The notes: generated by a model from the letters alone, not told the origin. A DNA stretch of 64,000 nt from Minisyncoccota bacterium (GCA_028697455.1 JAQVEZ010000002.1:89921-153920); one strand, 5' to 3'; counted from the first letter of the stretch, positions 4,202 to 24,209 are shown. Numbers and translations are program-made.

Positions 4202-5554
4202 ATGAATACTATTGATAAAATCTGGAAAAACATTCTAACAGAAATAGAACTCGAAATATCAAAACCTAATTTTAATACTTGGTTCAAAAAAACCTTCGCT
4301 CTCAATAAAGAAGGTGGTGTTTTTATCATTGGTGTTCCTAACGAGTTTAATAAGGAGTGGCTTCATAGTAAGTTTCACGAAATGATCCTCGAAAAACTTC
4401 AAAAATACGATGAAGGAATAAATTCAATAGAATATAGGGTTAAAAAACAAAATCTCGAGAAGAAACCTGCTCCTTTTGAAGAAGAGGGGAAGAAAAATTC
4501 AGGAAGAACACTTCCTTTTGAAATGAACACGGTAAACAAGGAAACGGGATTAAACGAAAAGTATTCGTTCCATTCGTTCGTTGTAGGACCCTTTAATGAA
4601 CTCGCTTACTCAGCGGCTCAAGCTATTATAAAGAAACCAGGAGTATATAATCCTCTCTTCATCTATGGATCAACAGGATTGGGGAAAACTCATCTTATTC
4701 AAGCAACAGGTAACAAAATAGCTCAGGATTATGAAAATTTAAAGATTTTTTATACGAGTTCAGAAAAATTTTCTCAAGATTACGTAAACGCTCTCAAAAA
4801 CAACTCAATAAACGCCTTCAAAAACAAATACCGAAGTTATGACCTCCTTATTATGGATGATATTCAATTCTTTTCAGGAAAAGAAAAACTTCAAGAAGAA
4901 CTCTTTCATTTGTTCAATATTCTTTATGATAAAGAAAAACAAATAATCTTTTCATCTGATAAACACCCAAATTATATTATTGGGCTTGAAGATAGATTAC
5001 GGTCTCGATTTTCTGCAGGGATGATTGTTGATATAACCAAACCCGATTACGAATCAAGATCTGCCCTCCTTAAAACAAAAGCAAGTCAAAGAAAGATACC
5101 TATTAATGAAGACGTTGTAGATTTCTTGGCATCAAATCTTGATGGAAATATTCGTGACCTCGAAGGAATCCTTAATTCTATTAATATTCAAACAGAATTA
5201 AAACAAAAGAAACTTTCAATTCAGGATGTTAAAGCTCTTATAAAAAATAATATAAAACCCAAAAAACATCTTGCAGTGGATGAGATTATAAAAATAGTTT
5301 CTGAATTCTATAATACTGAGACAGAAAAGATATACGACAAAACAAGAAAAAAAGAAGTTGTATATGTAAGACAAATTATTATGTATATCCTAAGAGAATT
5401 CTTTAATGTCTCATATCCAACAATTGGGAAAGAAATTGGTGGAAGAGATCATACGACCGTTATTCATTCATACGAAAGGGTAAAAGAATTTATGAAAGAA
5501 GATCCAAACATTGTTCAAGAAATAGATCAATTAAAAGCAATCCTTGATGTGTAA
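4202..5554 (+). CDS. dnaA: Chromosomal replication initiator DnaA
   Basis: Walker A GSTGLGKTHL and LIMDDIQF. The C-terminal DNA-binding domain contains IGGRDHTTVIHSYERV. Confidence 0.97.
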   Translation: MNTIDKIWKNILTEIELEISKPNFNTWFKKTFALNKEGGVFIIGVPNEFNKEWLHSKFHEMILEKLQKYDEGINSIEYRVKKQNLEKKPAPFEEEGKKNSGRTLPFEMNTVNKETGLNEKYSFHSFVVGPFNELAYSAAQAIIKKPGVYNPLFIYGSTGLGKTHLIQATGNKIAQDYENLKIFYTSSEKFSQDYVNALKNNSINAFKNKYRSYDLLIMDDIQFFSGKEKLQEELFHLFNILYDKEKQIIFSSDKHPNYIIGLEDRLRSRFSAGMIVDITKPDYESRSALLKTKASQRKIPINEDVVDFLASNLDGNIRDLEGILNSINIQTELKQKKLSIQDVKALIKNNIKPKKHLAVDEIIKIVSEFYNTETEKIYDKTRKKEVVYVRQIIMYILREFFNVSYPTIGKEIGGRDHTTVIHSYERVKEFMKEDPNIVQEIDQLKAILDV

Positions 5555-5761
5555 AAAGCTGTTAATAAACTTCTCATAAGTTCTGAACAATTTGTTAACA
5601 AAAAAGTTAATAAATAATATTCACAAAATTATTCAGTTTCCACATTTTTTATCCACAAGAAAAAAATAAAAAATCTCTTTAATTTATTAAACATTTTATT
5701 TAATCCCCAGAATTAACAGCCCTAATAATAGATAATAATTTTATTCTATTAAATTAATATT
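5555..5761. other. Candidate oriC / DNA-unwinding region in the dnaA-dnaN intergenic DNA
   Basis: A 207-bp, very AT-rich spacer. It contains a perfect DnaA box at 5649-5657 and three copies of the TTAATAAA motif. dnaA-dnaN is the conserved origin position. Confidence 0.5.
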
Positions 5762-6862
5762 ATGAAAATAGAAGCTCACTTAGAAAAAATTAAAGATGCT
5801 ATCTCTCGAATACAAAAAGTATCAGCAAAGAATATTAGTCTTCCTATTCTTGAAAATGTCCTTATAACATCTGGTAATAATACTCTTGTTTTAAGGACAA
5901 CGAATCTTCATGTTGGGGTTGAGATAACGGTACCAGTAAAGGTCATTGAAAAAGGGGAGGCGTTGGTTAAGCTTGAAGTCTTTAATGCCATTATTAATAA
6001 TTTAGGAAATGAAGAAGTTGTTATTTTTGAAGTTATTGATAACATACTAAAAATTACAACAGAAAAATCAGAAATGAGTATTAATCTTTTTCCTGTTGAT
6101 GACTTTCCAACACTTCCAAAAAAAGAAAATGAAGTTGAGATTAAACTTCCTCTCCCACTTTTTCTTGATGGAATACGATCGGTTATTTACGCTGCGTCAA
6201 CATCTGATATAAAACCTGAAATATCGAGTGTATATATTTATAGCGATAACAACGAAGTTATCTTTGTTTCAACAGATTCATTTCGGCTTGCAGAAAAACG
6301 AGTTGTTTTTGAAGGAAATGCTGATTTTCCAGGAATTATTATCCCTGTAAAAAATATCAATGAGTTTGTAAAAATCTTTTCTGGAATTGACGAAGAAGTA
6401 AGTGTTTTTATAGGAAAAAATCAATTTTTTGTGCAATCAGAAAATATTTTCTTTACTTCACGTTTAATCGATGGAAATTATCCAGATTACAAACAAATTA
6501 TTCCAAAAGAATCAAAAACAGAGTTTGTACTTCTCAAAGAAGAGCTTGTTCAGTCATTACGACTTGTAAATATCTTTTCAGATAGTTTTAATCAAATACT
6601 CATTAAAACAAAAAATAAAGACGGAAAAGTTGAGATTTTTTCTCGAAATACTGATGTTGGGGAAAATGAAACAGCCATAGACGCGGCAATAAAAGGCGAT
6701 GATATTGATGTGTATCTAAACCATAAATATCTTACTGATGTTTTTCCTGTTATTGGAAGTGATAGTATGAGTTTTTCATTTCTTGATAAAAACAAAGCAG
6801 CTGTTGTGCGATCAGTGGGAGATCCTTCATTTTTGTATTTGATTATGCCAATGAATCGATAA
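5762..6862 (+). CDS. dnaN: DNA polymerase III beta sliding clamp
   Basis: 366 aa, directly downstream of dnaA, with a three-domain clamp-like length. Confidence 0.9.
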   Translation: MKIEAHLEKIKDAISRIQKVSAKNISLPILENVLITSGNNTLVLRTTNLHVGVEITVPVKVIEKGEALVKLEVFNAIINNLGNEEVVIFEVIDNILKITTEKSEMSINLFPVDDFPTLPKKENEVEIKLPLPLFLDGIRSVIYAASTSDIKPEISSVYIYSDNNEVIFVSTDSFRLAEKRVVFEGNADFPGIIIPVKNINEFVKIFSGIDEEVSVFIGKNQFFVQSENIFFTSRLIDGNYPDYKQIIPKESKTEFVLLKEELVQSLRLVNIFSDSFNQILIKTKNKDGKVEIFSRNTDVGENETAIDAAIKGDDIDVYLNHKYLTDVFPVIGSDSMSFSFLDKNKAAVVRSVGDPSFLYLIMPMNR

Positions 6863-10513: not shown

Positions 10514-11725
10514 ATGAAGAAAATTAATTTTATATTATTATCAATATTTTTTATAAGTCTGGCGTTTTTGGGAACAGATGCGTATGCAAATGAAATCGAA
10601 TGGTCAAGCATCGAAGCTCCTGCACAAAATTCTTGGCGTGCTGTAACCTATGGTGAAGGGAAATTTGTTGCCGTTTCTACCGATGGAACAAATCGAATTA
10701 TGATTTCAGAAGACGGTAAAAACTGGGAAGTAACTCCAACTACTTGGGGAAGCCAATGGTTTACTGGAATTGCTTACGGGAACGGAGCTTTTGTTCTTGG
10801 AAATGCTTGGAATGGCAACATTTTCTATCGATCAATAGATGGAGGACAAACGTGGACAGGAGTTACCGGAGCCGCTAGTGGAGCTCAATTGGGAGACATT
10901 GCTTATGTTGACGGGGTTTTTGTTGCTGTTGATTATTCAAGAAGCTTTACTAATCAAGCAGCAGGTCAGCAAATATTCATTTCAAATGATGGATGGACGT
11001 GGGAAGCAAAAGGAGAATCAGCCAAGAAATACTGGCATGGTATTGCTTACGGAGATGGAAAAATTGTTATTGTAGGGGGGAAAGGAGAATCAGCAACTGA
11101 TGGAAAACACATTGGAGTATCCGAAGACAAAGGACAAACCTGGCAATACTTTGCGGCACCAGTGGCTGGAGGTGGTTATTGGACCAGTGTTGCTTACGGG
11201 AATGGTAAATTCGTAGCCGTCTCAGACGACGAGGGAGCTGCTCAAGACATTATTGTATCAAGTGATGGTAAGAACTGGACAGCCTACTCTTCTCCCGACA
11301 CCAAAGCATGGTGGGAAGATATTGCTTTCGGAAATGGATATTTTGTAATGGTATCGTATGACTACGATAATAATTTGAGTGAACCAGGAAAGGCTGTTGC
11401 TATCTCTAAGGACGGAATTAACTGGGAGACCGTTGATACAGTACCGGGTCACGGATATTACTCAGTTACTTTTGGAGACGATAAGTTTGTTGTCGTAGCC
11501 CTTGACTCTGATGATAATAATCGAATCTTTCTTGGAGAATTTCCTCCACAAAAAAGCCTTTCATCTTCCAATATCTTCGGAACCCGATTCTGTTCAGCAG
11601 AAGTTACCACCTTCTGTCGACCACAAAACGGATTTATGAATAATAATCCATTAGTAAATATCTACACTGAACTTTTGGGACTCTATCAACAACTCCTTTC
11701 TGCAATGCAGGGACAAAACAGCTAA
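10514..11725 (+). CDS. Secreted BNR/Asp-box repeat beta-propeller-like protein carrying the conserved C-terminal module (paralog A)
   Basis: Signal peptide MKKINFILLSIFFISLAFLGTDAYA. It has about 8 repeats of W..IAYGNGKFVAV and SxDGxxW. The C-terminal 55 aa (SSSNIFGTRFCSAEVTTFCRPQNGF…LLGLYQQLLSAMQ) are shared with the genes at 12043 and 22905. Confidence 0.75.
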   Translation: MKKINFILLSIFFISLAFLGTDAYANEIEWSSIEAPAQNSWRAVTYGEGKFVAVSTDGTNRIMISEDGKNWEVTPTTWGSQWFTGIAYGNGAFVLGNAWNGNIFYRSIDGGQTWTGVTGAASGAQLGDIAYVDGVFVAVDYSRSFTNQAAGQQIFISNDGWTWEAKGESAKKYWHGIAYGDGKIVIVGGKGESATDGKHIGVSEDKGQTWQYFAAPVAGGGYWTSVAYGNGKFVAVSDDEGAAQDIIVSSDGKNWTAYSSPDTKAWWEDIAFGNGYFVMVSYDYDNNLSEPGKAVAISKDGINWETVDTVPGHGYYSVTFGDDKFVVVALDSDDNNRIFLGEFPPQKSLSSSNIFGTRFCSAEVTTFCRPQNGFMNNNPLVNIYTELLGLYQQLLSAMQGQNS

Positions 11726-12042: not shown

Positions 12043-12894
12043 ATGAAAAAATACGTTTTTACATCACTACTATCATTGTTCGTTATAGTAGGATTTACAA
12101 GCTTTATGAGTCCACACAAAGTTTCTGCTGATTTTGAAGAAGGTCCTGAGGTTGTTTTTGAGGATGGAGGAAGATCTATTGTTGCAACTTTTGATCATGT
12201 TTTTCTTTTTACTCTTAAATATTTTGAGGAGGAAGATGGTACTGGTTATGAATTTGAAGATATAAGTATTCAAAGTTCTAGTGATAAGTGCGAAACAGAA
12301 AATGATGGGGACATCTACACAATAAGTTGTTATCAAGATATTCCCTTTGAAGTACAGAGTATAGTTATTGATTTTATGTGGAAGGGAGAATCACAAGGTG
12401 GTTATGCTCCAACACTATCTTCTTCAGATGTCTATAACAGAGCATTTACTTACCCAGAAATAATCTTTGAAGAAGGTGGTAGAGTTGTTATTATCAATTT
12501 TGATTCTGAATTTTATTTTGATATTTGTTATTTTGATGACGATTGTCTAATATATCTTTCTGATGGGGATTCTCTTGGAGAGGAATGTGAGATTATAGGA
12601 GATTATTCTGTTCGTTGTGAACAAGACATTCCTAAAGGAGCACTCGGGGTTGGGGTAGATGTATACGATGGAGATGGGAACGATTTTTATGATGAATATC
12701 TTTTTTCAACTCATAATCCTTCCTCATCAAGTATTTCAAATATCTTCGGAACACGATTCTGTTCAGCAGGAGTTACGACTTTCTGTCGACCTCAAAATGG
12801 ATTTACGAATAATAACCCATTAATCAGTATCTATACTGAACTTTTGGGATTGTATCAACAACTCCTTTCTGCTCTTCAAAACGAAAACAGCTAA
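12043..12894 (+). CDS. Secreted acidic Cys-containing repeat protein carrying the conserved C-terminal module (paralog B)
   Basis: Signal peptide MKKYVFTSLLSLFVIVGFTSFMSPHKVSA, near-identical to paralog C. It has an internal two-fold repeat (FEEGPEVVFEDGGRSIVATFD… / IFEEGGRVVIINFD…). The C-terminal module is SISNIFGTRFCSAGVTTFCRPQNGFTNNNPLISIYTELLGLYQQLLSALQ. A TGGTATACT -10 element sits 8 nt before the ATG. Confidence 0.75.
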   Translation: MKKYVFTSLLSLFVIVGFTSFMSPHKVSADFEEGPEVVFEDGGRSIVATFDHVFLFTLKYFEEEDGTGYEFEDISIQSSSDKCETENDGDIYTISCYQDIPFEVQSIVIDFMWKGESQGGYAPTLSSSDVYNRAFTYPEIIFEEGGRVVIINFDSEFYFDICYFDDDCLIYLSDGDSLGEECEIIGDYSVRCEQDIPKGALGVGVDVYDGDGNDFYDEYLFSTHNPSSSSISNIFGTRFCSAGVTTFCRPQNGFTNNNPLISIYTELLGLYQQLLSALQNENS

Positions 12895-14843: not shown

Positions 14844-17159
14844 TTGTATAATAGAAAGAGCATGGCTGCTTTCGACGATAAGGAACAAAATAAAAAAATC
14901 CAAGACATCCGAGCGAAGGAAGAAGAAGCATTCACCGAAAAAATTGCAAAGAAATTTGACCTTCCTTATATTGATCTTACGGGAGCCACGATAGAAACAG
15001 ATGCTCTTTCTAAGGTAAAAGAAGAAGACGCGCGGAAAGCCCTCCTCGCTCCTTTTAAAATTGTTGGAAAAGATTTATATGTTGCGCTCAAGTCGCCTAA
15101 TCTCCCCGAAACAAAAAGAGTTCTTGATAATCTTGAAAAAGACTACAATCTTGGAATTCATCTTGCATCCCAACGAAGTCTTGAAAAAGCATGGGGGCGT
15201 TATGAAGACATTACCTTTACCTTTGGAATAGAAGGAGGGGTTTTAGATATTTCTGAAGAAGAAATCAAAAAACTCGCTGCAAAAATCAAAACCAACCAAG
15301 ACATTGCCTTTGAATTTGACCGGGTTCTTGCTTTGGGAGAAGAGCGAAAGGTAACGCGTCTTATGGAAATTATTTTTGCCGGAGCTATTGCAACCGATTC
15401 TTCTGATGTGCATATTGAAGCGCAAGACGGAAAGGTAAGACTTCGTTTCCGTCAAGATGGAGTTCTTCAAGATATTATTTATTTTGACCCAGCTACCTAC
15501 AAACAAATTCTTTCACGAATTAAGCTCCTTTCAGAAATGAAACTTACTCAAACAGAAAATGCTCAGGACGGAAGGTTTACGATTGATTACGATAAAAAAG
15601 AAATTGAAATCCGTGTATCGGTTGTTCCAGGAGCTTTTGGAGAATCTTTTGTGATGCGTATTTTGAATCCCGATGGGATTAAAGTTGGAGTTGAACATCT
15701 TGGAATCGAAAAACGTCTTTATGAAATCCTTCTCAAGGAAATCGAAAAACCAAACGGAATGATTTTGACAACCGGACCTACCGGATCAGGAAAGACCACA
15801 ACCTTGTATTCTTTTATGAACAAAGTCTATTCTCCTGAGGTAAAGATTCTCACGATTGAAGACCCTATTGAATATCGTATTGAAGGAATCAACCAAACAC
15901 AGGTAAATCGCCAAAAAGGCTACACTTTTTCTTCTGGACTCCGAGCGGCTTTGCGACAGGACCCAGATATTATCATGGTGGGAGAGATTCGAGACAGTGA
16001 AACGGCAAGTATCGCGGTGAACGCTTCACTTACGGGGCACTTGGTTCTTTCAACACTCCACACGAACAGTGCAGCAGGAGTTATTCCTCGACTCCTTGAC
16101 CTTGGAGTATCCCCACAAATCCTTGCGGCTGCCTTATCGGTTTCGATTGCTCAGCGTTTGGTTCGTAAGGTTTGTGAATCATGTAAAGAAATTGTTGCTC
16201 CAACACCAGAACAAGAAGGTATTATTAGAGACGTTTTGAGAGAAGCACAAAAGAACGAAAAACCTCTTCACGAATACGGAATCAGCGTAAACCAAAAAAT
16301 AGAACTCAGTCGCGGAAAGGGCTGTGAAGTATGTAATGGAACAGGATATAAAGGACGTATCGGACTTTTTGAAGCTATTATTACTGATGAATATATCGAA
16401 GAACTCCTCAACAAGAGCCCGTCCGAACAAGAAATTCGTCGTGTTGCCGAAAAGCAGAGACTTCTTAATATCCGTGAAGATGGGGTAGTAAAAATCCTTA
16501 ATGGAATTACTTCTTTTGAAGAAGTTCAAAAGGTGATCGATCTTGATATCAAAAATATCACCCAATTTAAAACTGATACAGAAACCTCTCAAGGAGAAAA
16601 TATTTCTTTGGTAAACGAAGAAAGTAATCTTCCTCAGCAAAATACTTTTGCAGAAATACCTGAAAGTTCCAAACCCATATCTCAAGAAAACAAAGAAGAA
16701 GAAAATCTTGAAAAACTCCTCGAAGAAGTAAGTAAAAAAATCGACCTTGTCAAAGGGTCTGTTATCCCAAGCAAAAAAATTATCCCCGAAGAAGGAGCCC
16801 AAATCTCTCAGATTCCCCCTGCTGCAATTCTTAATAACAAAAGTATTGAGATATCGCTTTTGATTGATTATTTAAGACGACTTGAGCAGGATCAAATTCT
16901 TCGTCCCGATGTTGATATCAGTAAACAGATCAAACAAGTACAGCTCACAATACTTGAGCTTCTCCAGCGGAAACAAGCAGAAAGTATTCTCAACGCACAA
17001 GGAAATTTTGCACAAGCACACAAAACCTATACCGAACTTGCTGATGAGCTTGATACGCTCTATCGAGAACAACTTCAGAACCCAGGAGTTGATATGTCAG
17101 AAAGGATTAAAAAAATCCGTGAAGAAATTGAGTACTATCATTCACAACAAAGTATCTAA
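14844..17159 (+). CDS. pilB: Type II/IV secretion ATPase (PilB/GspE family) with a long C-terminal coiled-coil extension
   Basis: N-terminal T2SSE_N-like domain and Walker A TGPTGSGKTTTLYSF. A zinc-binding tetra-Cys CESCKE…CEVCNGTG is present. The C-terminal extension is about 200 aa. Confidence 0.9.
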   Translation: MYNRKSMAAFDDKEQNKKIQDIRAKEEEAFTEKIAKKFDLPYIDLTGATIETDALSKVKEEDARKALLAPFKIVGKDLYVALKSPNLPETKRVLDNLEKDYNLGIHLASQRSLEKAWGRYEDITFTFGIEGGVLDISEEEIKKLAAKIKTNQDIAFEFDRVLALGEERKVTRLMEIIFAGAIATDSSDVHIEAQDGKVRLRFRQDGVLQDIIYFDPATYKQILSRIKLLSEMKLTQTENAQDGRFTIDYDKKEIEIRVSVVPGAFGESFVMRILNPDGIKVGVEHLGIEKRLYEILLKEIEKPNGMILTTGPTGSGKTTTLYSFMNKVYSPEVKILTIEDPIEYRIEGINQTQVNRQKGYTFSSGLRAALRQDPDIIMVGEIRDSETASIAVNASLTGHLVLSTLHTNSAAGVIPRLLDLGVSPQILAAALSVSIAQRLVRKVCESCKEIVAPTPEQEGIIRDVLREAQKNEKPLHEYGISVNQKIELSRGKGCEVCNGTGYKGRIGLFEAIITDEYIEELLNKSPSEQEIRRVAEKQRLLNIREDGVVKILNGITSFEEVQKVIDLDIKNITQFKTDTETSQGENISLVNEESNLPQQNTFAEIPESSKPISQENKEEENLEKLLEEVSKKIDLVKGSVIPSKKIIPEEGAQISQIPPAAILNNKSIEISLLIDYLRRLEQDQILRPDVDISKQIKQVQLTILELLQRKQAESILNAQGNFAQAHKTYTELADELDTLYREQLQNPGVDMSERIKKIREEIEYYHSQQSI

Positions 17160-17219
17160 ACACTCTTGACAAAGAGTGTTTTTACTTTATGATAAGGAAG
17201 AATTTAAAATATTTTAAAA

Positions 17220-17933
17220 ATGAAAATAAAAACATTGTATTTGGTGTTGACGGCATTTTTTCTGAGTGCTTGCGCAAGTAGCACTTACCAGAAGATGCCT
17301 CCACCGAACCTTCAGCTATCCTTTCAAAATTTACAGTTTGAAAGGATAGATCCTGTGTCCCTTGTAGGCGTCTATGTCTCGTTTACAACAGCGGGACAGT
17401 TCTACAAAGACTCGCGAGCCGATCGTGAGGAAGCAGTCGATGCGGGTGTTTACATCCAGCACGACATTCTGTCGGGCGAGAGTTTGTATCAACCACTGGT
17501 CACTCCTGTTTTATACCTTACTGGTAAGGATCAGGGAAAACCTGTTCGGGACAAACGAACTGGCAAGATCCTCACGGATGATTTCCTTGGTGAGATCGTC
17601 TCGGTTGAGATAATGGACGGAGGACTTCCCTTGTTCTGGGTACATATTGATTCTCCTACGGGAGGAGCGATTTTGCCCTTTGGGCTTAGAGAAAGCCCCA
17701 AGCAAAAGGGACGACTTCAGGACAAGTTCGTCCTGATGATTGATAACAAGAGCGTCAGCTCTGGGGGGAAGAATTTCTTTCCAATTACGGATCTCTCTGG
17801 ACAAACCTGGTTTGCTCAGAATCCTGGCATGGGATTGAGCAAAATCTATTTTGCGAAATCCTCGGAGAACCAATCAACCTCTGAGGTGGGAACCTCAAAA
17901 AAGGTTGGGTTACCCGCCATTCGGGAACAGTAA
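17220..17933 (+). CDS. Lipoprotein, hypothetical (first gene of the GC-elevated island)
   Basis: Lipobox LSAC with signal peptide MKIKTLYLVLTAFFLSAC. The local GC content is visibly higher than elsewhere in the window. Confidence 0.6.
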   Translation: MKIKTLYLVLTAFFLSACASSTYQKMPPPNLQLSFQNLQFERIDPVSLVGVYVSFTTAGQFYKDSRADREEAVDAGVYIQHDILSGESLYQPLVTPVLYLTGKDQGKPVRDKRTGKILTDDFLGEIVSVEIMDGGLPLFWVHIDSPTGGAILPFGLRESPKQKGRLQDKFVLMIDNKSVSSGGKNFFPITDLSGQTWFAQNPGMGLSKIYFAKSSENQSTSEVGTSKKVGLPAIREQ

Positions 17934-18091
17934 TAATTAAAACAAAAACCCCAATTCTTGGACTTTTCCACAGGAGAGGGGTTTTATTCTTGACAAGTTA
18001 TCTTAATTATGATAAGATATTATCAAGGCTGAGTTCTTTACAAGTTCATTTTATTTAATTTTGAGAGTTAATTGTTTTTTTCAATGTAAAG

Positions 18092-18152
18092 TCTCAGCTC
18101 TTTAGGGAGAGTAACAGCATTATTATTCCTAAAGAGCTGAGAATGGTTCTCA
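18092..18152 (+). promoter_or_regulatory. Perfect 15-bp stem hairpin in the 5' UTR of the 18181 gene
   Basis: tctcagctctttagg (18092-18106) pairs exactly with cctaaagagctgaga (18128-18142), enclosing a 21-nt loop. A second hairpin, gagaa-tgg-ttctc, follows. A TTGACA promoter lies at about 17989. Confidence 0.5.
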
Positions 18153-18180
18153 GTAATTCAAAACTCAAAAAATTAAAAAA

Positions 18181-19140
18181 ATGAAAAAAATCTTTTTTTT
18201 GTTCATTGCAATACTGGGTATTGTGGTGAACGCAAATTATCTGGCTCCTGAAGGTTATTTTGTCCTTGAGGGAAGAACACAGGCAATGCCCAATGTGAAT
18301 TGGCTGGCCTCAGAAATGAACCCAACCAATTTTCCCATCTATGCACAGGAAAACAATAGTATGGGAGCATACTTTAACTATTCTTTCGTTCAGGATGGGA
18401 GAGTGATGGGTACTGAAAGGATTCACCTTTCGGATCAGATAGTAGCGTCCATTGGGCGCCACTTGTCAAATCCGAGAACCGGAGAGTCTTTGTCATCCGT
18501 TTGTGCCCGACAGGGAGGGCAATTTAATGCTGTTAATCGTATCGCTTTGCAATACGCACAACAGCAGATACCTGCTCCTCAGCAGCAATGCTGTCCTACG
18601 CCAGCCCCCCAACAAACTCAAATTGAGTATGTGGATAGACCTGTTTATATACAGGATCCACAAACCAATGAGATGTTGGCTCAATTACAAGCTGACAACG
18701 TTCAGCTTGAAAAACAACTGAGACGCAACCAGACCTGGACCCATATTTGGGGAGGGGTGAACCTGGCGGCGACAGCAGTAGACGGGTATTTGACTCGTCG
18801 TGAGATTAAAAAAAGAAACCGCCCTGTTAACTATAATTATAAAATAGTTAACAATACTCGTACCACCAATAATACCTATAATAATGGTGGAACGACTGGT
18901 AGTGGTGAGACCTGGACTGGAAACGGTTCAGGAAACGAGAACGGTGGTAGCTGGAATCCGAACAACAATCCCGGAAATAACAACGGGAATGGTTCGGGAG
19001 CCGATCCCTTTGGGAGAGGCTATCAGCAAGGAAGTGGATACTCACAAGGCTATTCGTCTATGACGAGCCAGGTGAGAACATCAGCTTCTGGAAGAAGCTC
19101 AAACGGAACAAAATCCGTGCGCTTCCAGAAGAAGCGTTAA
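18181..19140 (+). CDS. Secreted low-complexity (N/G/T/Q-rich) hypothetical protein
   Basis: Signal peptide MKKIFFLFIAILGIVVNA. The C-terminal half is NNTYNNGGTTGSGETWTGNGSGNENGG…. The GC content is elevated. Confidence 0.55.
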   Translation: MKKIFFLFIAILGIVVNANYLAPEGYFVLEGRTQAMPNVNWLASEMNPTNFPIYAQENNSMGAYFNYSFVQDGRVMGTERIHLSDQIVASIGRHLSNPRTGESLSSVCARQGGQFNAVNRIALQYAQQQIPAPQQQCCPTPAPQQTQIEYVDRPVYIQDPQTNEMLAQLQADNVQLEKQLRRNQTWTHIWGGVNLAATAVDGYLTRREIKKRNRPVNYNYKIVNNTRTTNNTYNNGGTTGSGETWTGNGSGNENGGSWNPNNNPGNNNGNGSGADPFGRGYQQGSGYSQGYSSMTSQVRTSASGRSSNGTKSVRFQKKR

Positions 19141-19159
19141 GCAAAATTTAAAACAACAA

Positions 19160-19186
19160 GAGCCTTACGAGTTAAGGCTCTTTTTT
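19160..19186 (+). terminator. Intrinsic terminator
   Basis: Stem gagcctta/taaggctc with loop cgagt and a T6 run. Confidence 0.7.
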
Positions 19187-19254
19187 ATTGCACCAAAACA
19201 TTGACAAGAGACTCTTACAATGCTATTTCTAGGGTAAATATAAAAAAATTAAAG

Positions 19255-20055
19255 ATGAAAAAAGTTTTCTTTTTCTTTGTTGTGCTTTTTTCAAGCTTTG
19301 CGCTTGAGGCACAACGAAATGACGGGGTTGCCCGTCCGACCCGAGGTGCTTTTTGGGATCAGGGCTGCGACGGCTCCATATCCAAGTACGTCGAAAATAA
19401 TCTTGGACCAGGGACTTACTCTGTAGAGTGTGGCGGAATTTCTTATTCCATTGTTGTTGAGCAGATGTGGGATAAAGATACTAAAATTCTTTTCCGTGAT
19501 GGAAATTTTTCCGAAAGAAATCGTAACTGGGTTACGATTTACGGAAAAAAAATCTGGAGATATTCAAGCTCAAATGACTGGACCCTTGCAGATTGTGGAA
19601 ATCGTATCTACGATATCTCTCGTGGACCAAAAGATCTCCAAGGAGGAGGGCTTGTTGTTACTGGCGATAACGGATGTAATTGTCCCGAGCCAAAAGTAAA
19701 GGACTATCAGTTCGAAACGACACCCTTGCGGGGGACAAATACTCCTATGTATTATTTTCCTCCACAACCCCAACAGCCAATGTACGCTTTTGACCAAAAT
19801 GCGTTCTTACCAAAGCAAAAAACTTGGATGGGGAGAAATTGGGGATGGTTTGTTCCACTTCTTGCTGTTGGCGTTGGTACGGGAACGTATTTCCTGATAG
19901 ACGCACTCAACAGCAACCACAGCTCAAGCAACCCACCACCTGATGATGGAGATGGTGATGAGACCTGGGGTCCGAACGACTCTGGGAGTGAACGAGGAAA
20001 AGTGTATACCGTTCCAACCCCTTCAAGAGGGTTTGTTATTCCTATTTTCCAGTAA
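19255..20055 (+). CDS. Secreted Cys-containing hypothetical protein with a C-terminal TM anchor
   Basis: The likely start is the Met at 19255 (MKKVFFFFVVLFSSFALEAQ signal peptide); the ORF track begins at 19201. A TM segment WGWFVPLLAVGVGTGTYFLI lies near the C-terminus. The GC content is elevated. Confidence 0.55.
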   Translation: MKKVFFFFVVLFSSFALEAQRNDGVARPTRGAFWDQGCDGSISKYVENNLGPGTYSVECGGISYSIVVEQMWDKDTKILFRDGNFSERNRNWVTIYGKKIWRYSSSNDWTLADCGNRIYDISRGPKDLQGGGLVVTGDNGCNCPEPKVKDYQFETTPLRGTNTPMYYFPPQPQQPMYAFDQNAFLPKQKTWMGRNWGWFVPLLAVGVGTGTYFLIDALNSNHSSSNPPPDDGDGDETWGPNDSGSERGKVYTVPTPSRGFVIPIFQ

Positions 20056-20076: not shown

Positions 20077-20099
20077 CTTTTAAAAAGTAAAAGGTGTAG

Positions 20100-20128
20100 T
20101 TGACAACTACATCTTTTTTTGCTATGAT
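20100..20128 (+). promoter_or_regulatory. Sigma70 promoter (TTGACA, 17-nt spacer, TATGAT)
   Basis: Consensus spacing, upstream of the 20165 gene. Confidence 0.55.
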
Positions 20129-20164: not shown

Positions 20165-22804
20165 ATGAATCAATTTATCAAAAAATTTGTACAAATTGCA
20201 GTACTTACCGGATCCCTCGTTATTGCAGGGAATGCTTTGGCTGCAAATTTTGACCCCCAACCAATGGGGAATCATGGTTTTACAACCATTAACACCAATT
20301 GTTCACAAGATTGTGCAAATCAAAAAAACAGTATTTCATACAACGAGCTTCCAGCAAGCAAGGAATTTACTGTGTATTTGAATTTTCACAATAATACCCC
20401 TGGGCATATTACTAATGCTGCAGGAAAGGTGAGCTATGCTTCATCTGGAAGTTCAGGGTCTGCGACTTTCACCGGACAGCTTTCTGGGTCAGGAGCATCA
20501 ACTATTACTGACACAGCGACTATTACAAACCTTCCATCAAGTTGGCAAATTCAATTTGTTTCTGGTTTTGTAAGAGTAGAAGAACACTACAGTAACCAAG
20601 GAACTCCCTGTACTGGGACTTTTCCTGGAACATGGCCATGGCAACATAGTTTTTCAAACCCTTCTAATGCACCAATAGGAACACTTCATTACTTTAATGC
20701 TAATGAAGGAGGATGGTGTGATCAAGGATATGTTTTTGCAAAATTTAAAATCGTTGATACCACCGTTAATGATCCAACACCAGTAAACGGTCAGTGTCGT
20801 GTTTATAATGGAACCTACTCCTCACAACCTGCAACGAACACCGCAACTGGATGTCTTGCAGGAACCTATCAAGATACACAGGACACTCAAACACAATGGA
20901 GATGGCAATGTAACGGATTGCATGGTGGAGCAACAACCAGTTGTTCTGCCGCAAAGCAAACCATTAACCAACCAGAGTATAGTTATGCCTGGGGATGGAG
21001 TGCCTGGGGATCCTGTATTAACAACATTCGAACAAGAACAGCTCAGTGTTTACGAACAGAAGTAGGAACTCAAGGACCGTCAAACCCTGTTGTGGTAAAT
21101 GATAGTTACTGTATCCAAAATGTTGGGCCAAAACCAGCACCACAAACTCAATCTTGTTCAGGAACACCTTCTGAAGATACTCTTTCTATTGAAACCTTAG
21201 GAGCAACGAATATTACCCAATCAAGCGCAAAGCTTAATGGACGAGTTCTTGCGGGAAGTACTAACTATGTTTACTTTGTATTAGGAACTAACAGTAACAA
21301 TCTTACCTGTTCTTCTAATAACAAATATTTCCCTTATGATTTCAACATTAACCGAAATGCTGGGGATATGTTTAGCTATACTTTCCCTAACGGAAGTTTG
21401 AGCAGCAACTCAACCTATTACTACCGAGCATGTGCCCAAGGAGTTACCGGAATTACTCCAGGACAAATTGTTTCTTTCAAAACAAAAAAAGCTTCATCAA
21501 ATGAAAATCACGTTGAGATCGTTACCGAAGCGCCACAATCAGTAACCAAGACAACAGCTGATCTCTGTGCGAACCTTGTTGAGGATGGAGGGAGTCAAGT
21601 TCAAACATGGATTGAATATCGAAAGAGTTCAGCAAACTCATGGTCAGAGACACCTACTCATCAACGATATGCAGGATACTTCTGTCAGTCAGTTACAGGG
21701 CTTTCTTCAAACACTTCATACGTGTATCGAGCATGTACTCCAGAGGGATGTGCTTCAACCAGAACCTTTAAGACTCTTTCTTCTGGGTCTGGAAGCTATG
21801 ATCCAGGAGAAGCTCCCATTATTATTACTGACGACCCAACAAACGTTCGAAGTAACGGAGCAATCCTTAACGGTACTTATGTAACTAACGCACCAAGTGG
21901 AACCTGTTGGTTCGAATACGGACGAACAGCCAACCTTGGAAGCCAAACACGAAGCTATTCTGTGGGAAGCGGATATGGAACCTGTGTTCATAACTTTACT
22001 AATCTTGCAGCAAATCAGCTTTACTGTGTACGAGCCGTTATTCAGACCGTAAATGGAACTTCACGAGGAGGAATAAAATGTTTCACTACACCAGGAACTA
22101 CTTATACTGGAGGAGGAACAGTCTATGTACCTCCACGAGTTGTTGTTGTTGAAGAAAACCCACAAGTAGACCTCTCTGCTCTTGGACTAGGACTTTCTTT
22201 GGTGAGACTCAATATCGATGATCACAATGATGTTGTTTTTCCAGGACAACAAGTTATGTATGAGGTAACATGGGAAAATATTTCTCATATTGATCTTGAT
22301 AACTTGCAACTCAAGGTTACTATTCCTTCAAAAATCACTATCACCAGTGCTTCACGAGGACGAATTAACCCAGAGGACAACAGTATTCTCTATATGATTA
22401 GTGACCTTCGTTCAGGAGAGCGAGGAGAGCTTACCATTGGAGGACTTGTTGGGAAACCAACCATAGGAACCGCACTTACTGCACAAGCAGAACTTGCGTA
22501 TAAAAACCCTATTAACTTTGCACAAGAAAATGCTCTTGATTTTGACATCAACGATGTTGGAACAAGAATTGCAGGAGTAACGGCTTCTATCTTTGGATTA
22601 GGAAATATTACCTTCCTTGGATGGCTTGTAATTCTCCTTGGACTCTTTATTATCTTCTTGATTGCTCGGTATCTTTACCTTGAACGAGAAGAATTGAGAG
22701 CTCAGGCATATATGAGTGGATATTCACCATATAACAATCCACCAAACTTTAACCCACGACCTCAAGACGATTATTACAATCCGTATCGACCAAATCGTGG
22801 ATAA
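20165..22804 (+). CDS. Large Cys-rich cell-surface protein with a C-terminal TM anchor and a Pro/Tyr/Asn-rich tail
   Basis: 879 aa with signal peptide MNQFIKKFVQIAVLTGSLVIAGNALA. The body has many Cys and repeated blocks of about 90 aa (fibronectin-III-like by pattern). A TM segment FLGWLVILLGLFIIFLIARYL is followed by the tail YSPYNNPPNFNPRPQDDYYNPYRPNRG. Confidence 0.7.
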   Translation: MNQFIKKFVQIAVLTGSLVIAGNALAANFDPQPMGNHGFTTINTNCSQDCANQKNSISYNELPASKEFTVYLNFHNNTPGHITNAAGKVSYASSGSSGSATFTGQLSGSGASTITDTATITNLPSSWQIQFVSGFVRVEEHYSNQGTPCTGTFPGTWPWQHSFSNPSNAPIGTLHYFNANEGGWCDQGYVFAKFKIVDTTVNDPTPVNGQCRVYNGTYSSQPATNTATGCLAGTYQDTQDTQTQWRWQCNGLHGGATTSCSAAKQTINQPEYSYAWGWSAWGSCINNIRTRTAQCLRTEVGTQGPSNPVVVNDSYCIQNVGPKPAPQTQSCSGTPSEDTLSIETLGATNITQSSAKLNGRVLAGSTNYVYFVLGTNSNNLTCSSNNKYFPYDFNINRNAGDMFSYTFPNGSLSSNSTYYYRACAQGVTGITPGQIVSFKTKKASSNENHVEIVTEAPQSVTKTTADLCANLVEDGGSQVQTWIEYRKSSANSWSETPTHQRYAGYFCQSVTGLSSNTSYVYRACTPEGCASTRTFKTLSSGSGSYDPGEAPIIITDDPTNVRSNGAILNGTYVTNAPSGTCWFEYGRTANLGSQTRSYSVGSGYGTCVHNFTNLAANQLYCVRAVIQTVNGTSRGGIKCFTTPGTTYTGGGTVYVPPRVVVVEENPQVDLSALGLGLSLVRLNIDDHNDVVFPGQQVMYEVTWENISHIDLDNLQLKVTIPSKITITSASRGRINPEDNSILYMISDLRSGERGELTIGGLVGKPTIGTALTAQAELAYKNPINFAQENALDFDINDVGTRIAGVTASIFGLGNITFLGWLVILLGLFIIFLIARYLYLEREELRAQAYMSGYSPYNNPPNFNPRPQDDYYNPYRPNRG

Positions 22805-22902: not shown

Positions 22903-22910
22903 AGATGAGT

Positions 22911-24209
22911 ATGAATAAACATATTTTTACGTCACTACTATCGTTATTTGTGATAGTAGGTTTTACAAGTTTTATTAACCCACACACGGTTTCTGCTCAA
23001 CCTATCGAATGGGAGGAGTTTGATTTGAGTCCTGATAATTATAATTCTATTGCTTACGGAAATGGAGTGTATGTTGTGGTCGGGGATGAAGCCTCAATGT
23101 ACTCCTCTGACGGAAAGAATTGGTACCCAGCAATGACCTCGTTGGCGGGAGTCCTGTACTCCGTTGTTTATGGAGATGGAAAATTTGTCGCAGTAGGAAG
23201 CAGCAACAACACAAGTACAAGCAATCCTGTAGCTTATACCTCTACAGATGGAGTAATATGGAGTCCTTCTTTTGAGGCCTTGCCCCCTAAAGTAAATACT
23301 GGAGCTGGGCTTAAAAAAGTTTCCTATGTCTATGACAATATCAACGAAAAAAACCTTTTTGTCGCAGTAGGATCTGACTTATCTAATCTTTTAGGAGGAA
23401 GTCAGATTCCTTACATTATTTATTCTTCTAATGGAAACGAGTGGTTTAAGGCTACCTTACCAATGGGGGTTAATGGTACCGCTTCAGATTTAACAGGAGG
23501 TTATAATGAAGATGGAGAGGTCGTTTTCCTATCTTCAGTAGCAACAAACCCCCTTCTCTCTTCATCAAATATTATTATGTCTACTAATGGTGGAGCAAAT
23601 TGGTTCTATCCAGACGACGCTCTTACAGGACTTGACGGTTTTAGCGGGGCAGCTATGAGCTACCTTAATGGAGAATTTTTTCTTGGAGGAACTATTTCTG
23701 ATATGGGAAGTAAGCTTATTTATGTAATGTCTTCATCGGATGGATTCAATTGGGAGCAGCATGAAGTTGGGTCAACTGTCTCATTTTTTCCTAGATTCAA
23801 TTTTGCATATGGAAATGATAATTATATATCGATAGGGGCAGAAGAATCAATATATTCTTTGGGTGGAGAAAATTGGGAATTTTTTACTCCAAGTTTTGAC
23901 AAGAGCACTGATTTTGGAGTCTATCCAATACAATTAATTTATGCAGATGATTCCTTTGTTCTTTTGGGACAAAATGAATTAGGAGAATCTATTGTTGCTT
24001 TTCCTAAACGCCTGAACGATTCATCAGAAGGGCTTTCTTCAAAATCTTCAAGCATTTTTGGAACACGATTTTGTTCAGCAGGAGTTACGACTTTCTGTAG
24101 ACCACAAAACGGATTTGTGAACAACAACCCATTGATTAGTATTTATACTGAACTTCTGGGACTGTACCAACAACTCCTTTCTGCGATGCAGAGTGAAAAT
24201 AGCTTATAA
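22911..24209 (+). CDS. Secreted BNR/Asp-box-like repeat protein carrying the conserved C-terminal module (paralog C)
   Basis: Signal peptide MNKHIFTSLLSLFVIVGFTSFINPHTVSA. Repeats such as YSVVYGDGKFVAVG and SxDGxxW are present. The C-terminal module is SSIFGTRFCSAGVTTFCRPQNGFVNNNPLISIYTELLGLYQQLLSAMQ. The ORF-track start at 22905 is 2 codons upstream. Confidence 0.75.
   Translation: MNKHIFTSLLSLFVIVGFTSFINPHTVSAQPIEWEEFDLSPDNYNSIAYGNGVYVVVGDEASMYSSDGKNWYPAMTSLAGVLYSVVYGDGKFVAVGSSNNTSTSNPVAYTSTDGVIWSPSFEALPPKVNTGAGLKKVSYVYDNINEKNLFVAVGSDLSNLLGGSQIPYIIYSSNGNEWFKATLPMGVNGTASDLTGGYNEDGEVVFLSSVATNPLLSSSNIIMSTNGGANWFYPDDALTGLDGFSGAAMSYLNGEFFLGGTISDMGSKLIYVMSSSDGFNWEQHEVGSTVSFFPRFNFAYGNDNYISIGAEESIYSLGGENWEFFTPSFDKSTDFGVYPIQLIYADDSFVLLGQNELGESIVAFPKRLNDSSEGLSSKSSSIFGTRFCSAGVTTFCRPQNGFVNNNPLISIYTELLGLYQQLLSAMQSENSL

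Follow-up and report, generated by a model that had tools for sequence, protein, structure and literature searches.

Candidate Phyla Radiation (CPR) bacteria, or Patescibacteria, account for a large share of bacterial diversity, and for most of them a life attached to other cells is presumed. To our knowledge, almost nothing is known about their surface molecules or the regulation thereof. Among the closest described systems are surface-protein loci of other organisms: the host-interacting lipoprotein loci of Borrelia have been portrayed as recombination-shaped and fast-evolving (PMC11389397), and the hypervariable Ig-protein module of Thermococcales as a comparable, rapidly evolving locus (PMC8416519). 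Here, we analyse three consecutive genes—designated g1, g2 and g3—within a 64,000-nt stretch of DNA (hereafter ‘the window’; GCA_028697455.1 JAQVEZ010000002.1:89921-153920) from an uncultured, ultra-small Paceibacteria (CPR) bacterium. We consider it probable that they form an ancestral surface cassette of one Paceibacteria clade, as opposed to an insertion, with an RNA leader in front of g2 and a recent replacement of the g1 and g2 alleles.

The cassette shares with those loci a fixed chromosomal position, export signals, rapid divergence relative to its flanks, module exchange and mosaic recombination tracts. It differs from them in that it belongs to an uncultured CPR bacterium, in that its proteins have no sequence or fold relationship to theirs, and in that neither silent cassettes nor phase-variation repeats were seen.

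Results

The cassette keeps its position across related lineages

Related loci were retrieved via PilB from species-representative genomes and metagenomes, and later via members of the g2 family; loci and contigs of strains and relatives carry L-numbers (L001-L180). They share a common layout, in which a long-form pilB gene (usually divergent from ruvB) is followed by a g1-family lipoprotein gene, one to three genes for signal-peptide proteins, the gene for a giant surface protein, tsaE and polA. This layout is present in at least 12 related Paceibacteria lineages, and in every relative with enough flanking DNA. The full order RuvB-PilB-cassette-giant protein-TsaE-PolA was recovered in L171, L012, L014 and L096. 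The g1-family gene follows long pilB, directly or one gene removed, in L011-L014, L092, L093, L096, L171 and L178-L180, and in L172, the short contig of which lacks pilB, the g1 homologue is situated ahead of the g2 homologue. The original prediction had placed the genes between pilB and a large surface-protein gene, as is indeed the case (Table 1), and had offered a specialised surface module as one reading, which the recurrence of this arrangement beside long-form pilB supports.

The position of the cassette is conserved, yet its sequences have changed much more rapidly than those of the housekeeping genes nearby. Relative to L171, the closest fully syntenic relative, identity amounts to 78% for RuvB, 66% for PilB and 63% for PolA, as compared to 50% for the g2 head and 35% for g1. 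Between strains, the ratio of non-synonymous to synonymous substitution rates (dN/dS) is 0.14-0.18 for g3 and spans 0.10-0.18 over g3 and the giant gene, indicative of purifying selection; both are thus real, constrained genes.

The make-up of the locus varies in places. In L014 (12272-14068; 598 amino acids (aa)) and L096 (12212-13327; 371 aa), pilB and the g1 homologue are separated by an additional, unrelated lipoprotein gene, implying that the cassette gains and loses members. Moreover, a conserved pair of small, unannotated genes (~218 and ~138 aa) resides beside pilB or the g1 homologue in L015, L091 and L092, and in L091 separates pilB from a g2-type gene.

A real GC excess without the marks of an insertion

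The three genes had been singled out for an elevated G+C (GC) content, and computation bears this out: positions 17220-20055 have 43.5% GC versus 37.8% for the whole window, which puts the background near 38% and not at the previously estimated 35%. The interval is the maximum among all 2836-nt windows (~2 standard deviations above their mean), and many 200-nt stretches within it reach 45-52%. By gene, g1, g2 and g3 have 46.9%, 45.4% and 44.8% GC against 38.5±3.7% for 60 window genes. The GC content at third codon positions (GC3) is 0.50, 0.43 and 0.39, respectively, as compared to 0.306±0.056 (z = 3.4, 2.2 and 1.4), with g1 ranking first and g2 second among the 60 genes. At fourfold-degenerate sites, the GC fraction is 0.40 in the cassette genes versus 0.27. 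Since the spacers between g1, g2 and g3 have only 29-30% GC, the excess is confined to the coding sequences.

This excess, the codon usage of g1 and g2—foreign to the genome, as described below—and the orphan status of the three proteins in large databases would be compatible with a recently acquired genomic island, namely foreign DNA that had entered between pilB and the gene for the surface protein, which the original prediction had proposed. In this plain form, the proposal is refuted by the conservation and synteny of the genes, a finding that the original prediction had itself named as refuting; homologues of the genes occupy the same position in the above lineages, and we regard it as highly improbable. 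We found no flanking tRNA, direct repeat, integrase, transposase or mobility gene at the locus, the nearest tRNAs being located at 27.8 and 33.6 kb. Promoters, terminators and the conserved leader are of a native type common to the relatives, and g3 is best fitted by the host codon model. In the tetranucleotide test that the original prediction had suggested, a composition-normalised profile did not flag the interval (z = -0.9, rank 27 of 245); the strongest tetranucleotide deviation in the window is in the giant surface-protein gene. What remains of the acquisition claim is a narrower form that concerns g1 and g2, not g3, in which foreign codon usage goes together with a tract of low diversity.

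A conserved, covarying RNA leader precedes g2

A perfect 15-bp hairpin had been reported in the 5′ untranslated region of g2. The hairpin exists (arms 18092-18114 and 18120-18142); what went unnoticed is the conserved, covarying leader that surrounds it. In the window, this leader folds with a z-score of -5.4 relative to shuffled sequences. In the relatives, spacer folds revealed the second-position gene, whatever head it encodes, to be preceded by a promoter of the same design and a leader of ~155-180 nt. These leaders carry a near-perfect hairpin of 14-20 bp, the sequence of which differs between lineages. We refer to this hairpin as P3, to the helix formed with the start region as P1, and to a segment near the 5′ end as Box1 (Table 1).

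RNAalifold, applied to a MAFFT alignment of eight leaders, returned 19 pairs, 16 of them with compensatory changes. With P1 added, 86.9% of the cells in these eight leaders were paired, as opposed to 71.8% in shuffles and 42-49% with slid partners. A covariance model built from this alignment picked out no sites other than these among ~170 loci plus the window. It subsequently recognised three more instances on which it had not been trained (L178, L179 and L180), bringing the total to 11 lineages. There is one leader copy per locus, invariably ending at the ATG that opens the second-position gene, and the element is therefore not a dispersed repeat. Two of the untrained matches end at the called ATG, and the one in L180 at an ATG located 69 nt into the annotated gene (4966-5865); guided by the RNA model and the signal peptide, we take this public call to start within the leader and the true start to be 5035.

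Over all 11 sequences, 88.9% of cells were paired (shuffles, 70.2±1.6%; slid partners, 41-47%) and 63 cells had changed on both sides, compared with 20.9 in shuffles; none of 500 shuffles reached the observed values. Pairs with double changes numbered 22 of 28, comprising 16 of 19 in P3 and six of nine in P1, and the fraction of paired cells was 93.5% in P3 and 79.8% in P1.

Three properties indicate that the structure belongs to the mRNA and not the DNA. The covariance model scored 62-142 bits on the plus strand and 32-60 bits on the minus strand; a U-G pair is kept in nine of the 11 leader sequences; and start regions pair best with their own upstream region (-12.8 versus -6.3 kcal/mol). In every leader, P1 takes in the final 10-25 nt ahead of the ATG, which it pairs with an upstream strand rich in A and U. 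The ATG is itself enclosed in the window, in L093 and in L014, and partly so in L172. We have good confidence that the leader is a conserved structured RNA, predicted from its sequence to occlude the g2 start region. A search of Rfam 15 gave no match within 18017-18183 at E-values up to 1, and the structure is previously undescribed.

In none of the leaders is P3 or the small downstream hairpin followed by a U tract, and a terminator scan made no call; the leader is therefore neither a terminator nor a transcription attenuator. We also considered a conserved upstream mini-open reading frame (ORF) or leader peptide. AUGs precede P3 in most leaders, but the ORFs they open range from one to more than 20 codons, and this candidate was discarded.

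Box1 suggests an alternative fold

Box1, formed by the first transcribed nucleotides, nearly repeats the distal portion of the P3 3′ arm in each lineage. We judged its pairing by duplex energies and dropped a column-wise count, three sequences being one column out of register. A duplex of Box1 with the P3 5′ arm had an energy of -13.1 kcal/mol within a species and -9.1 kcal/mol across species (p = 0.012), and when the 3′ arm was blocked in silico, five of eight leaders adopted the Box1 pairing and freed the start region. In such a scheme, the leader would hold g2 translation off, and would open when Box1 pairs with the P3 5′ arm in place of the 3′ arm. Such opening could take place in the course of transcription, or be triggered by a trans-acting or physical signal. 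We have low-to-moderate confidence in this Box1-based switch. Working against it are the modest significance of the energy calculations on which it is modelled, the three of eight leaders that keep P1 when the 3′ arm is blocked, and the derivation of the g2 transcription start, near 18025, from a promoter consensus.

The palindrome might alternatively be a DNA-level operator or repeat element, or a mere RNA-stabilising hairpin, in place of a translational switch. Its long, perfect arms could accommodate a dimeric protein, Box1 lies close to the promoter, and the evidence for switching is purely computational. That said, the arms covary and keep no fixed recognition sequence, G-U pairs are kept on the plus strand only, model scores are strand-asymmetric, and P1 covaries with the start region of each gene. 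Taken together, we deem an operator or simple stabiliser unlikely, and favour an RNA structure that would shield the g2 start.

Codon usage and strain diversity point to a probable allele turnover

The codon usage of g1 and g2 is nearly uniform, with GAG, CAG, CTG, TTG and GTG enriched and the host-favoured CTC depleted (from 0.27 to 0.08). In a likelihood test against 121 CPR codon models, the own-genome model ranked only 78th for g1 and 43rd for g2, whereas the window's own model ranked first for pilB, polA, the giant gene, p434 (a secreted-protein gene downstream of the giant gene) and g3. Uniform usage fitted g1 and g2 better than any genome model. GC-richer relatives exist within the clade (L180 and L012; GC3 0.35-0.44); tried as codon donors, they described g1 and g2 only marginally better than the host did, and less well than uniform usage.

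Both genes lie within a tract of low diversity among strains (Table 1). In the other strain type, the clean part of the tract begins at ~17082-17838. The tract measures ~2.4-2.8 kb, and differences among strains are close to zero over 17160-19520. Strain contigs from other samples differ by 3-9% in pilB, g3, the giant gene and p434 (synonymous divergence, dS, 0.07-0.36), yet the stretch from g1 through the spacer and g2 to nucleotide 266 of g3 contains just 0-5 differences; dS in g1 and g2 is 0-0.03, as compared to 0.13-0.36 in pilB, g3 and the giant gene. We infer that, in this species, recombination with a related lineage of higher GC content recently replaced the g1 and g2 alleles and that the new allele subsequently spread, which would explain both the near-uniform codon usage and the near-absence of diversity.

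Several observations speak against such a replacement. No donor emerged: a search of 5.8 billion clusters gave only the genes themselves and strain copies, and a concatenated profile of the three families with spacer peptides worked locally, yet in the big database gave only g1 and g2 themselves. The tetranucleotide signature of the locus is the ordinary one reported above. Raised GC3 reaches into a part of g3 that is diverse among strains, so that sweep and composition do not exactly coincide. Identical tracts occur elsewhere in this mosaic population, as in ruvB of L002. Finally, the strain contigs are few, partly stem from one project and are perhaps not independent.

A serious rival is that no foreign DNA was involved, and that an internal rise in GC3, through GC-biased gene conversion or selection on the mRNA, coincided with the sweep of a native allele or with strong constraint. 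The ordinary signature, the missing donor and the visibly mosaic, recombining population would fit this explanation, as would the raised GC3 over the diverse part of g3, seen in both strain alleles (0.39-0.40), and the somewhat higher GC3 of the g1 homologues of L172, L093 and L171 relative to their neighbours. Simple GC drive, however, would not yield a shift that is mostly towards G-ending codons with a concomitant loss of CTC, and five other relatives have no GC3 excess in their g1 homologue. The ribosomal-protein genes of the window have ordinary GC3, which counts against an internal cause and led us to reject expression-linked codon bias. An internal cause is the less probable explanation in our assessment, albeit one to be taken seriously; allele replacement by a GC-richer relative is the one we retain.

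A lipoprotein and two head-stalk proteins

All three products bear the export signals that the original prediction had ascribed to them, namely a lipobox in g1 and signal peptides in g2 and g3. Its sketches of g2 as a low-complexity, N/G-rich secreted protein and of g3 as a transmembrane-anchored Cys protein likewise hold, given the N-, G- and S-rich tail of the former and the five cysteines and transmembrane segment of the latter. It had further recognised no protein family, and we found none for g1, g2 or g3 in Pfam or NCBIfam (E-values up to 0.1), PHROGs or the PDB. PADLOC returned nothing credible: a ThsB match (E 0.002) was dismissed, as it falls in a low-complexity tail, and so were weak T7_gp14 Pfam matches of two g2-family members.

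The g1 signal peptide ends in a lipobox (MKIKTLYLVLTAFFLSAC) whose Cys18 is invariant in eight of eight family members. g1 is thus a predicted bacterial lipoprotein, with lipid modification by Lgt/LspA being putative. The family follows long pilB in related lineages: a local iterative hidden Markov model (HMM) search identified positional homologues in L011, L012, L013, L014, L092, L093 and L096. BLASTP added homologues in L171 (35% identity, E 5e-35), L178 and L180 (28-30% identity) and also ties in L172. Relative to L002, g1 shows five synonymous and no non-synonymous differences, suggesting a real gene under constraint. Its mature part belongs to no known lipoprotein family in Pfam, NCBIfam or PDB sequences, and PDB profile searches gave only a signal-peptide match to TrwH. 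Single-sequence AlphaFold2 modelling of g1 stayed at a predicted local distance difference test score (pLDDT) of 34. Database homology for both g1 and g3 was limited to the protein itself or a 94% strain variant; the g1 sequence is identical to that of an NCBI protein from a ‘Candidatus Pacebacteria’ metagenome-assembled genome.

In g2, the signal peptide is followed by an alpha/beta head (residues ~25-130), a Gln/Pro linker, a coiled-coil helix (160-189), a weakly hydrophobic helix (198-212; ‘module 1’) and an N/G/S-rich tail with an ETWxG motif. In g3, a ~150-aa head containing the five cysteines leads via a Pro/Gln linker to a KTWMGRNWGW motif, a transmembrane segment (200-218; ‘module 2’) and an acidic tail with an ETWG motif. 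The length of g3 is counted from the ATG named in the original prediction.

An exhaustive HMMER search among 1.84 billion representatives yielded ~15 g2 relatives, on rare contigs. g2 matches L093, L091 and L012, and later L171-L180, while local iterative HMM searches connected g3 with L014 and L096; more precisely, the g3 head matches L014 (15344-16492) and the g3 anchor six other loci. The g2-family head (~110 aa) is well conserved, with invariant G31, C108 and Q111. AlphaFold2 modelled it on the basis of 16 sequences with a pLDDT above 90, as beta-alpha-beta-beta-beta-alpha-alpha followed by two long helices. No significant match to this head was found in PDB or viral structure libraries. 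A thioredoxin-like fold was considered and set aside: the best Foldseek hit in the PDB had an E-value of ~0.02 and a root-mean-square deviation of 7-9 Å, and the head has a single invariant Cys108 and no CxxC.

Two conserved modules recur at the C termini. Module 1 (g2 type) reads KKARTEAW..TG...DG and is only weakly hydrophobic, and module 2 (g3 type) consists of KTWxGRNWGW and the transmembrane segment. At least four unrelated heads were found on these two modules. The g2-type head, head A, is joined to module 1 in the window, L172 and L173, but to module 2 in L171 and L174-L176; in L171 and L180, module 1 is combined with heads other than A. As judged from these sequences, g2- and g3-type heads have been exchanged between two conserved C-terminal modules. 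A 31-nt stretch is 71% identical between the tails of g2 (18902-18932) and g3 (19955-19985), where it encodes a G(D/E)ETW(T)G motif, and ETWG-type motifs recur in the tails of family members from other lineages (P0005, P0018 and P0004).

Surface display is favoured over a role in a pilus machine

We predict the cassette to encode a lipoprotein tethered to the membrane (g1) and two proteins built from a head, a stalk and a C-terminal module (g2 and g3). These would be displayed on the envelope of a bacterium that is probably attached to other cells, and might mediate contact with, or recognition of, a host cell or other partner under diversifying pressure. Surface display and partner contact are suggested solely by the export signals and the evolutionary pattern, which tempers the proposal, as does the module 1 helix of g2: by hydropathy, it is too polar for a transmembrane call, and g2 may be released instead of anchored.

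The strict linkage to long-form pilB across the clade invites a different view, according to which g1-g3 are accessory parts of a PilB-driven, type IV pilus-like machine, analogous to PilP and PilN/PilO, and not independent surface proteins. A lipoprotein such as g1 would resemble PilP, and g2 has a coiled-coil segment. PilN and PilO have a short cytoplasmic N terminus, then a transmembrane segment and an external domain. The topology of g2 and g3, which have an N-terminal signal peptide and a hydrophobic segment near the C terminus, is the reverse. There was no match to any pilus family in Pfam or NCBIfam (E-values up to 0.1) and no sequence match in the PDB, each gene has its own promoter and terminator, and no pilC, pilM or pilin gene was present nearby among the genes examined. 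Furthermore, machine parts rarely fall to 30-35% identity or swap heads while the ATPase stays at 66%. A pilus-machine role thus appears less likely than surface display and partner contact, and we consider it improbable.

Compact transcription signals

Each gene had been credited with its own promoter and terminator. This holds for g1 and g2 and for all terminators; the putative g3 promoter has a weak -10 element and was not called by the promoter scan, which located TTGACA-N16/17-TAxxxT sites upstream of g1, g2 and the giant gene (Table 1). The layout of the g2 promoter recurs in eight relatives. At two junctions (17158-17181 and 20089-20117), the terminator hairpin of the preceding gene also accommodates, within its loop or stem, the -35 TTGACA of the promoter that follows, making for a very compact arrangement. 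The starts of g1, g2 and g3 share an A-rich context, AAAAATTAAAxATGAAAAAA (17201-17229, 18162-18190 and 19236-19264), have no Shine-Dalgarno sequence and open with MK(K/I)-type signal peptides.

Table 1 Features of the cassette and its immediate flanks (positions in the window)
Feature	Position	Strand	Evidence or remark
Long-form PilB-type ATPase gene, upstream anchor	14844-17159	+	Pfam T2SSE E 3e-117, MshEN
Low-diversity tract among strains	16716-19520	.	One difference from L001 over 2.8 kb
pilB terminator hairpin	17158-17181	+	Terminator scan
g1 promoter	17166-17193	+	Scan and sequence; -35 TTGACA inside pilB terminator hairpin
g1, predicted lipoprotein, 237 aa	17220-17933	+	Lipobox LSAC with Cys18
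g1 terminator hairpin	17945-17985 (scan match 17963-17979)	+	Longer stem in fold of 17934-18183
g2 promoter	17990-18018	+	Scan; TTGACA, 17 nt, TG-extended TAAGAT
Structured g2 leader, ~165 nt	18017-18183	+	Covariance model R1, 110 bits
Box1	18027-18033	+	Leader segment
P1 5′ strand	~18047-18069	+	
P3 hairpin	18092-18108 with 18126-18142; inner stem 18110-18114 with 18120-18124	+	
Small downstream hairpin	~18136-18152	+	
P1 3′ strand, including A-rich start region and ATG	~18155-18183	+	
g2, predicted secreted protein, 319 aa	18181-19140	+	
g2 terminator	19158-19182	+	Terminator scan; 10-bp stem, then T run
Putative g3 promoter	19201-19229	+	Read from sequence, not called by scan; -35 TTGACA (19201), weak -10
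g3, predicted type-I membrane protein, 266 aa	19255-20055	+	
g3 terminator	20089-20117	+	Scan; overlaps giant-gene promoter (20100-20128)
Giant surface protein, 879 aa, with C-terminal transmembrane segment, downstream anchor	20165-22804	+	Weak DUF11 and FN3-like Pfam matches

Flanking genes

The PilB of this locus carries a charged, coiled-coil-like C-terminal extension of ~200 aa (residues ~570-771) that follows the T2SSE domain. Within the clade this extension is conserved, matches to relatives (57-73% identity) reaching residues ~763-770; more distant CPR PilBs lack it, and matches to them stop near residue 568. On the other side of the cassette, homologues of the giant protein, 38-52% identical, occupy the same position in L012, L014, L096, L171 and L180. 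The giant protein ends in a transmembrane segment (815-833) and a tail of the form Y-x-P-Y-[RK]-P-N-R-G, an ending shared by the L012, L014 and L096 homologues despite very divergent ectodomains.

Downstream of the giant gene lie p434 (encoding a 434-aa secreted protein), tsaE and polA. Three paralogous secreted proteins are encoded at 10514-11725, 12043-12894 and 22905-24209; p434 is 33% identical to p403, whereas p283 has only its first 29 (79%) and last 50 residues (94%) in common with p434, suggesting p283 to be a chimeric or internally replaced copy. p283 and p434 form direct partial repeats that bracket the block of yebC, ruvB, pilB, the cassette and the giant gene. Between strains, dN/dS is highest for p434 (0.4-0.5). 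Further upstream, a VirB4/TraG-like ATPase gene lies beside apparent dnaA and dnaN genes (412-2256, 4202-5554 and 5762-6862), labels that we presume from position and N-terminal sequence. If they hold, the cassette is ~13 kb from the likely replication origin.

Discussion

The locus is of interest in three respects. Its unannotated surface-protein genes form a defined cassette that keeps its position and is linked to a distinctive PilB variant; there is clear evidence of domain shuffling and of allele turnover within a population; and an undescribed RNA structure, strongly supported, is predicted to control g2. Of these elements, the covarying leader is the newest, and both its RNA motif and the swapping of modules are concrete and undescribed. 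Genomes could be screened for further cassettes of this kind by means of the motif, and the heads would be candidate determinants of partner specificity should the proteins mediate attachment.

More speculatively, and with considerable doubt on our part, the leader might be a riboregulator of a new class. It would be a switch built from four segments, the first nucleotides of the mRNA imitating one arm of a hairpin of very high stability, and would control the production of a surface protein with exchangeable heads in a CPR bacterium living as an episymbiont. The signal would be contact, temperature or a factor acting in trans. Head and module swapping, combined with the import of alleles by natural transformation, would then constitute a dedicated system by which these ultra-small bacteria vary their cell surface.

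Comparison with known systems

The cassette resembles genomic islands in its local deviation of GC content and codon usage and in its genes for secreted proteins; it departs from them in being syntenic in relatives, in having no tRNA, repeats or integrase, and in its regulatory signals of native type. Like bacterial lipoproteins, g1 and all its homologues begin with a short basic segment, continue with a hydrophobic one and carry an invariant Cys within L-[SAT]-[SAG]-C; unlike them, g1 has a mature part that falls in no known lipoprotein family and defied fold prediction at the above score. With PilN, PilO and PilP, the cassette has in common that it adjoins a PilB-type ATPase gene and includes a lipoprotein and bitopic or coiled-coil proteins, but it is set apart by the lack of a family match, the reversed topology, the separate transcription units and very fast divergence.

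The g2 leader, for its part, combines traits of several regulatory RNAs. Thermometers, riboswitches and attenuators differ from it in that the leader has no Rfam match, Shine-Dalgarno sequence, U tract, conserved leader peptide or recognisable ligand pocket, and its P3 is far longer and more stable than the helices of RNA thermometers. As in thermometers of the ROSE and fourU types and in translational riboswitches, a helix is predicted to occlude the ribosome-loading region and the start codon. As in attenuation of the trp-leader type, a 5′ segment duplicates one arm of a hairpin, which would give rise to two mutually exclusive pairings.

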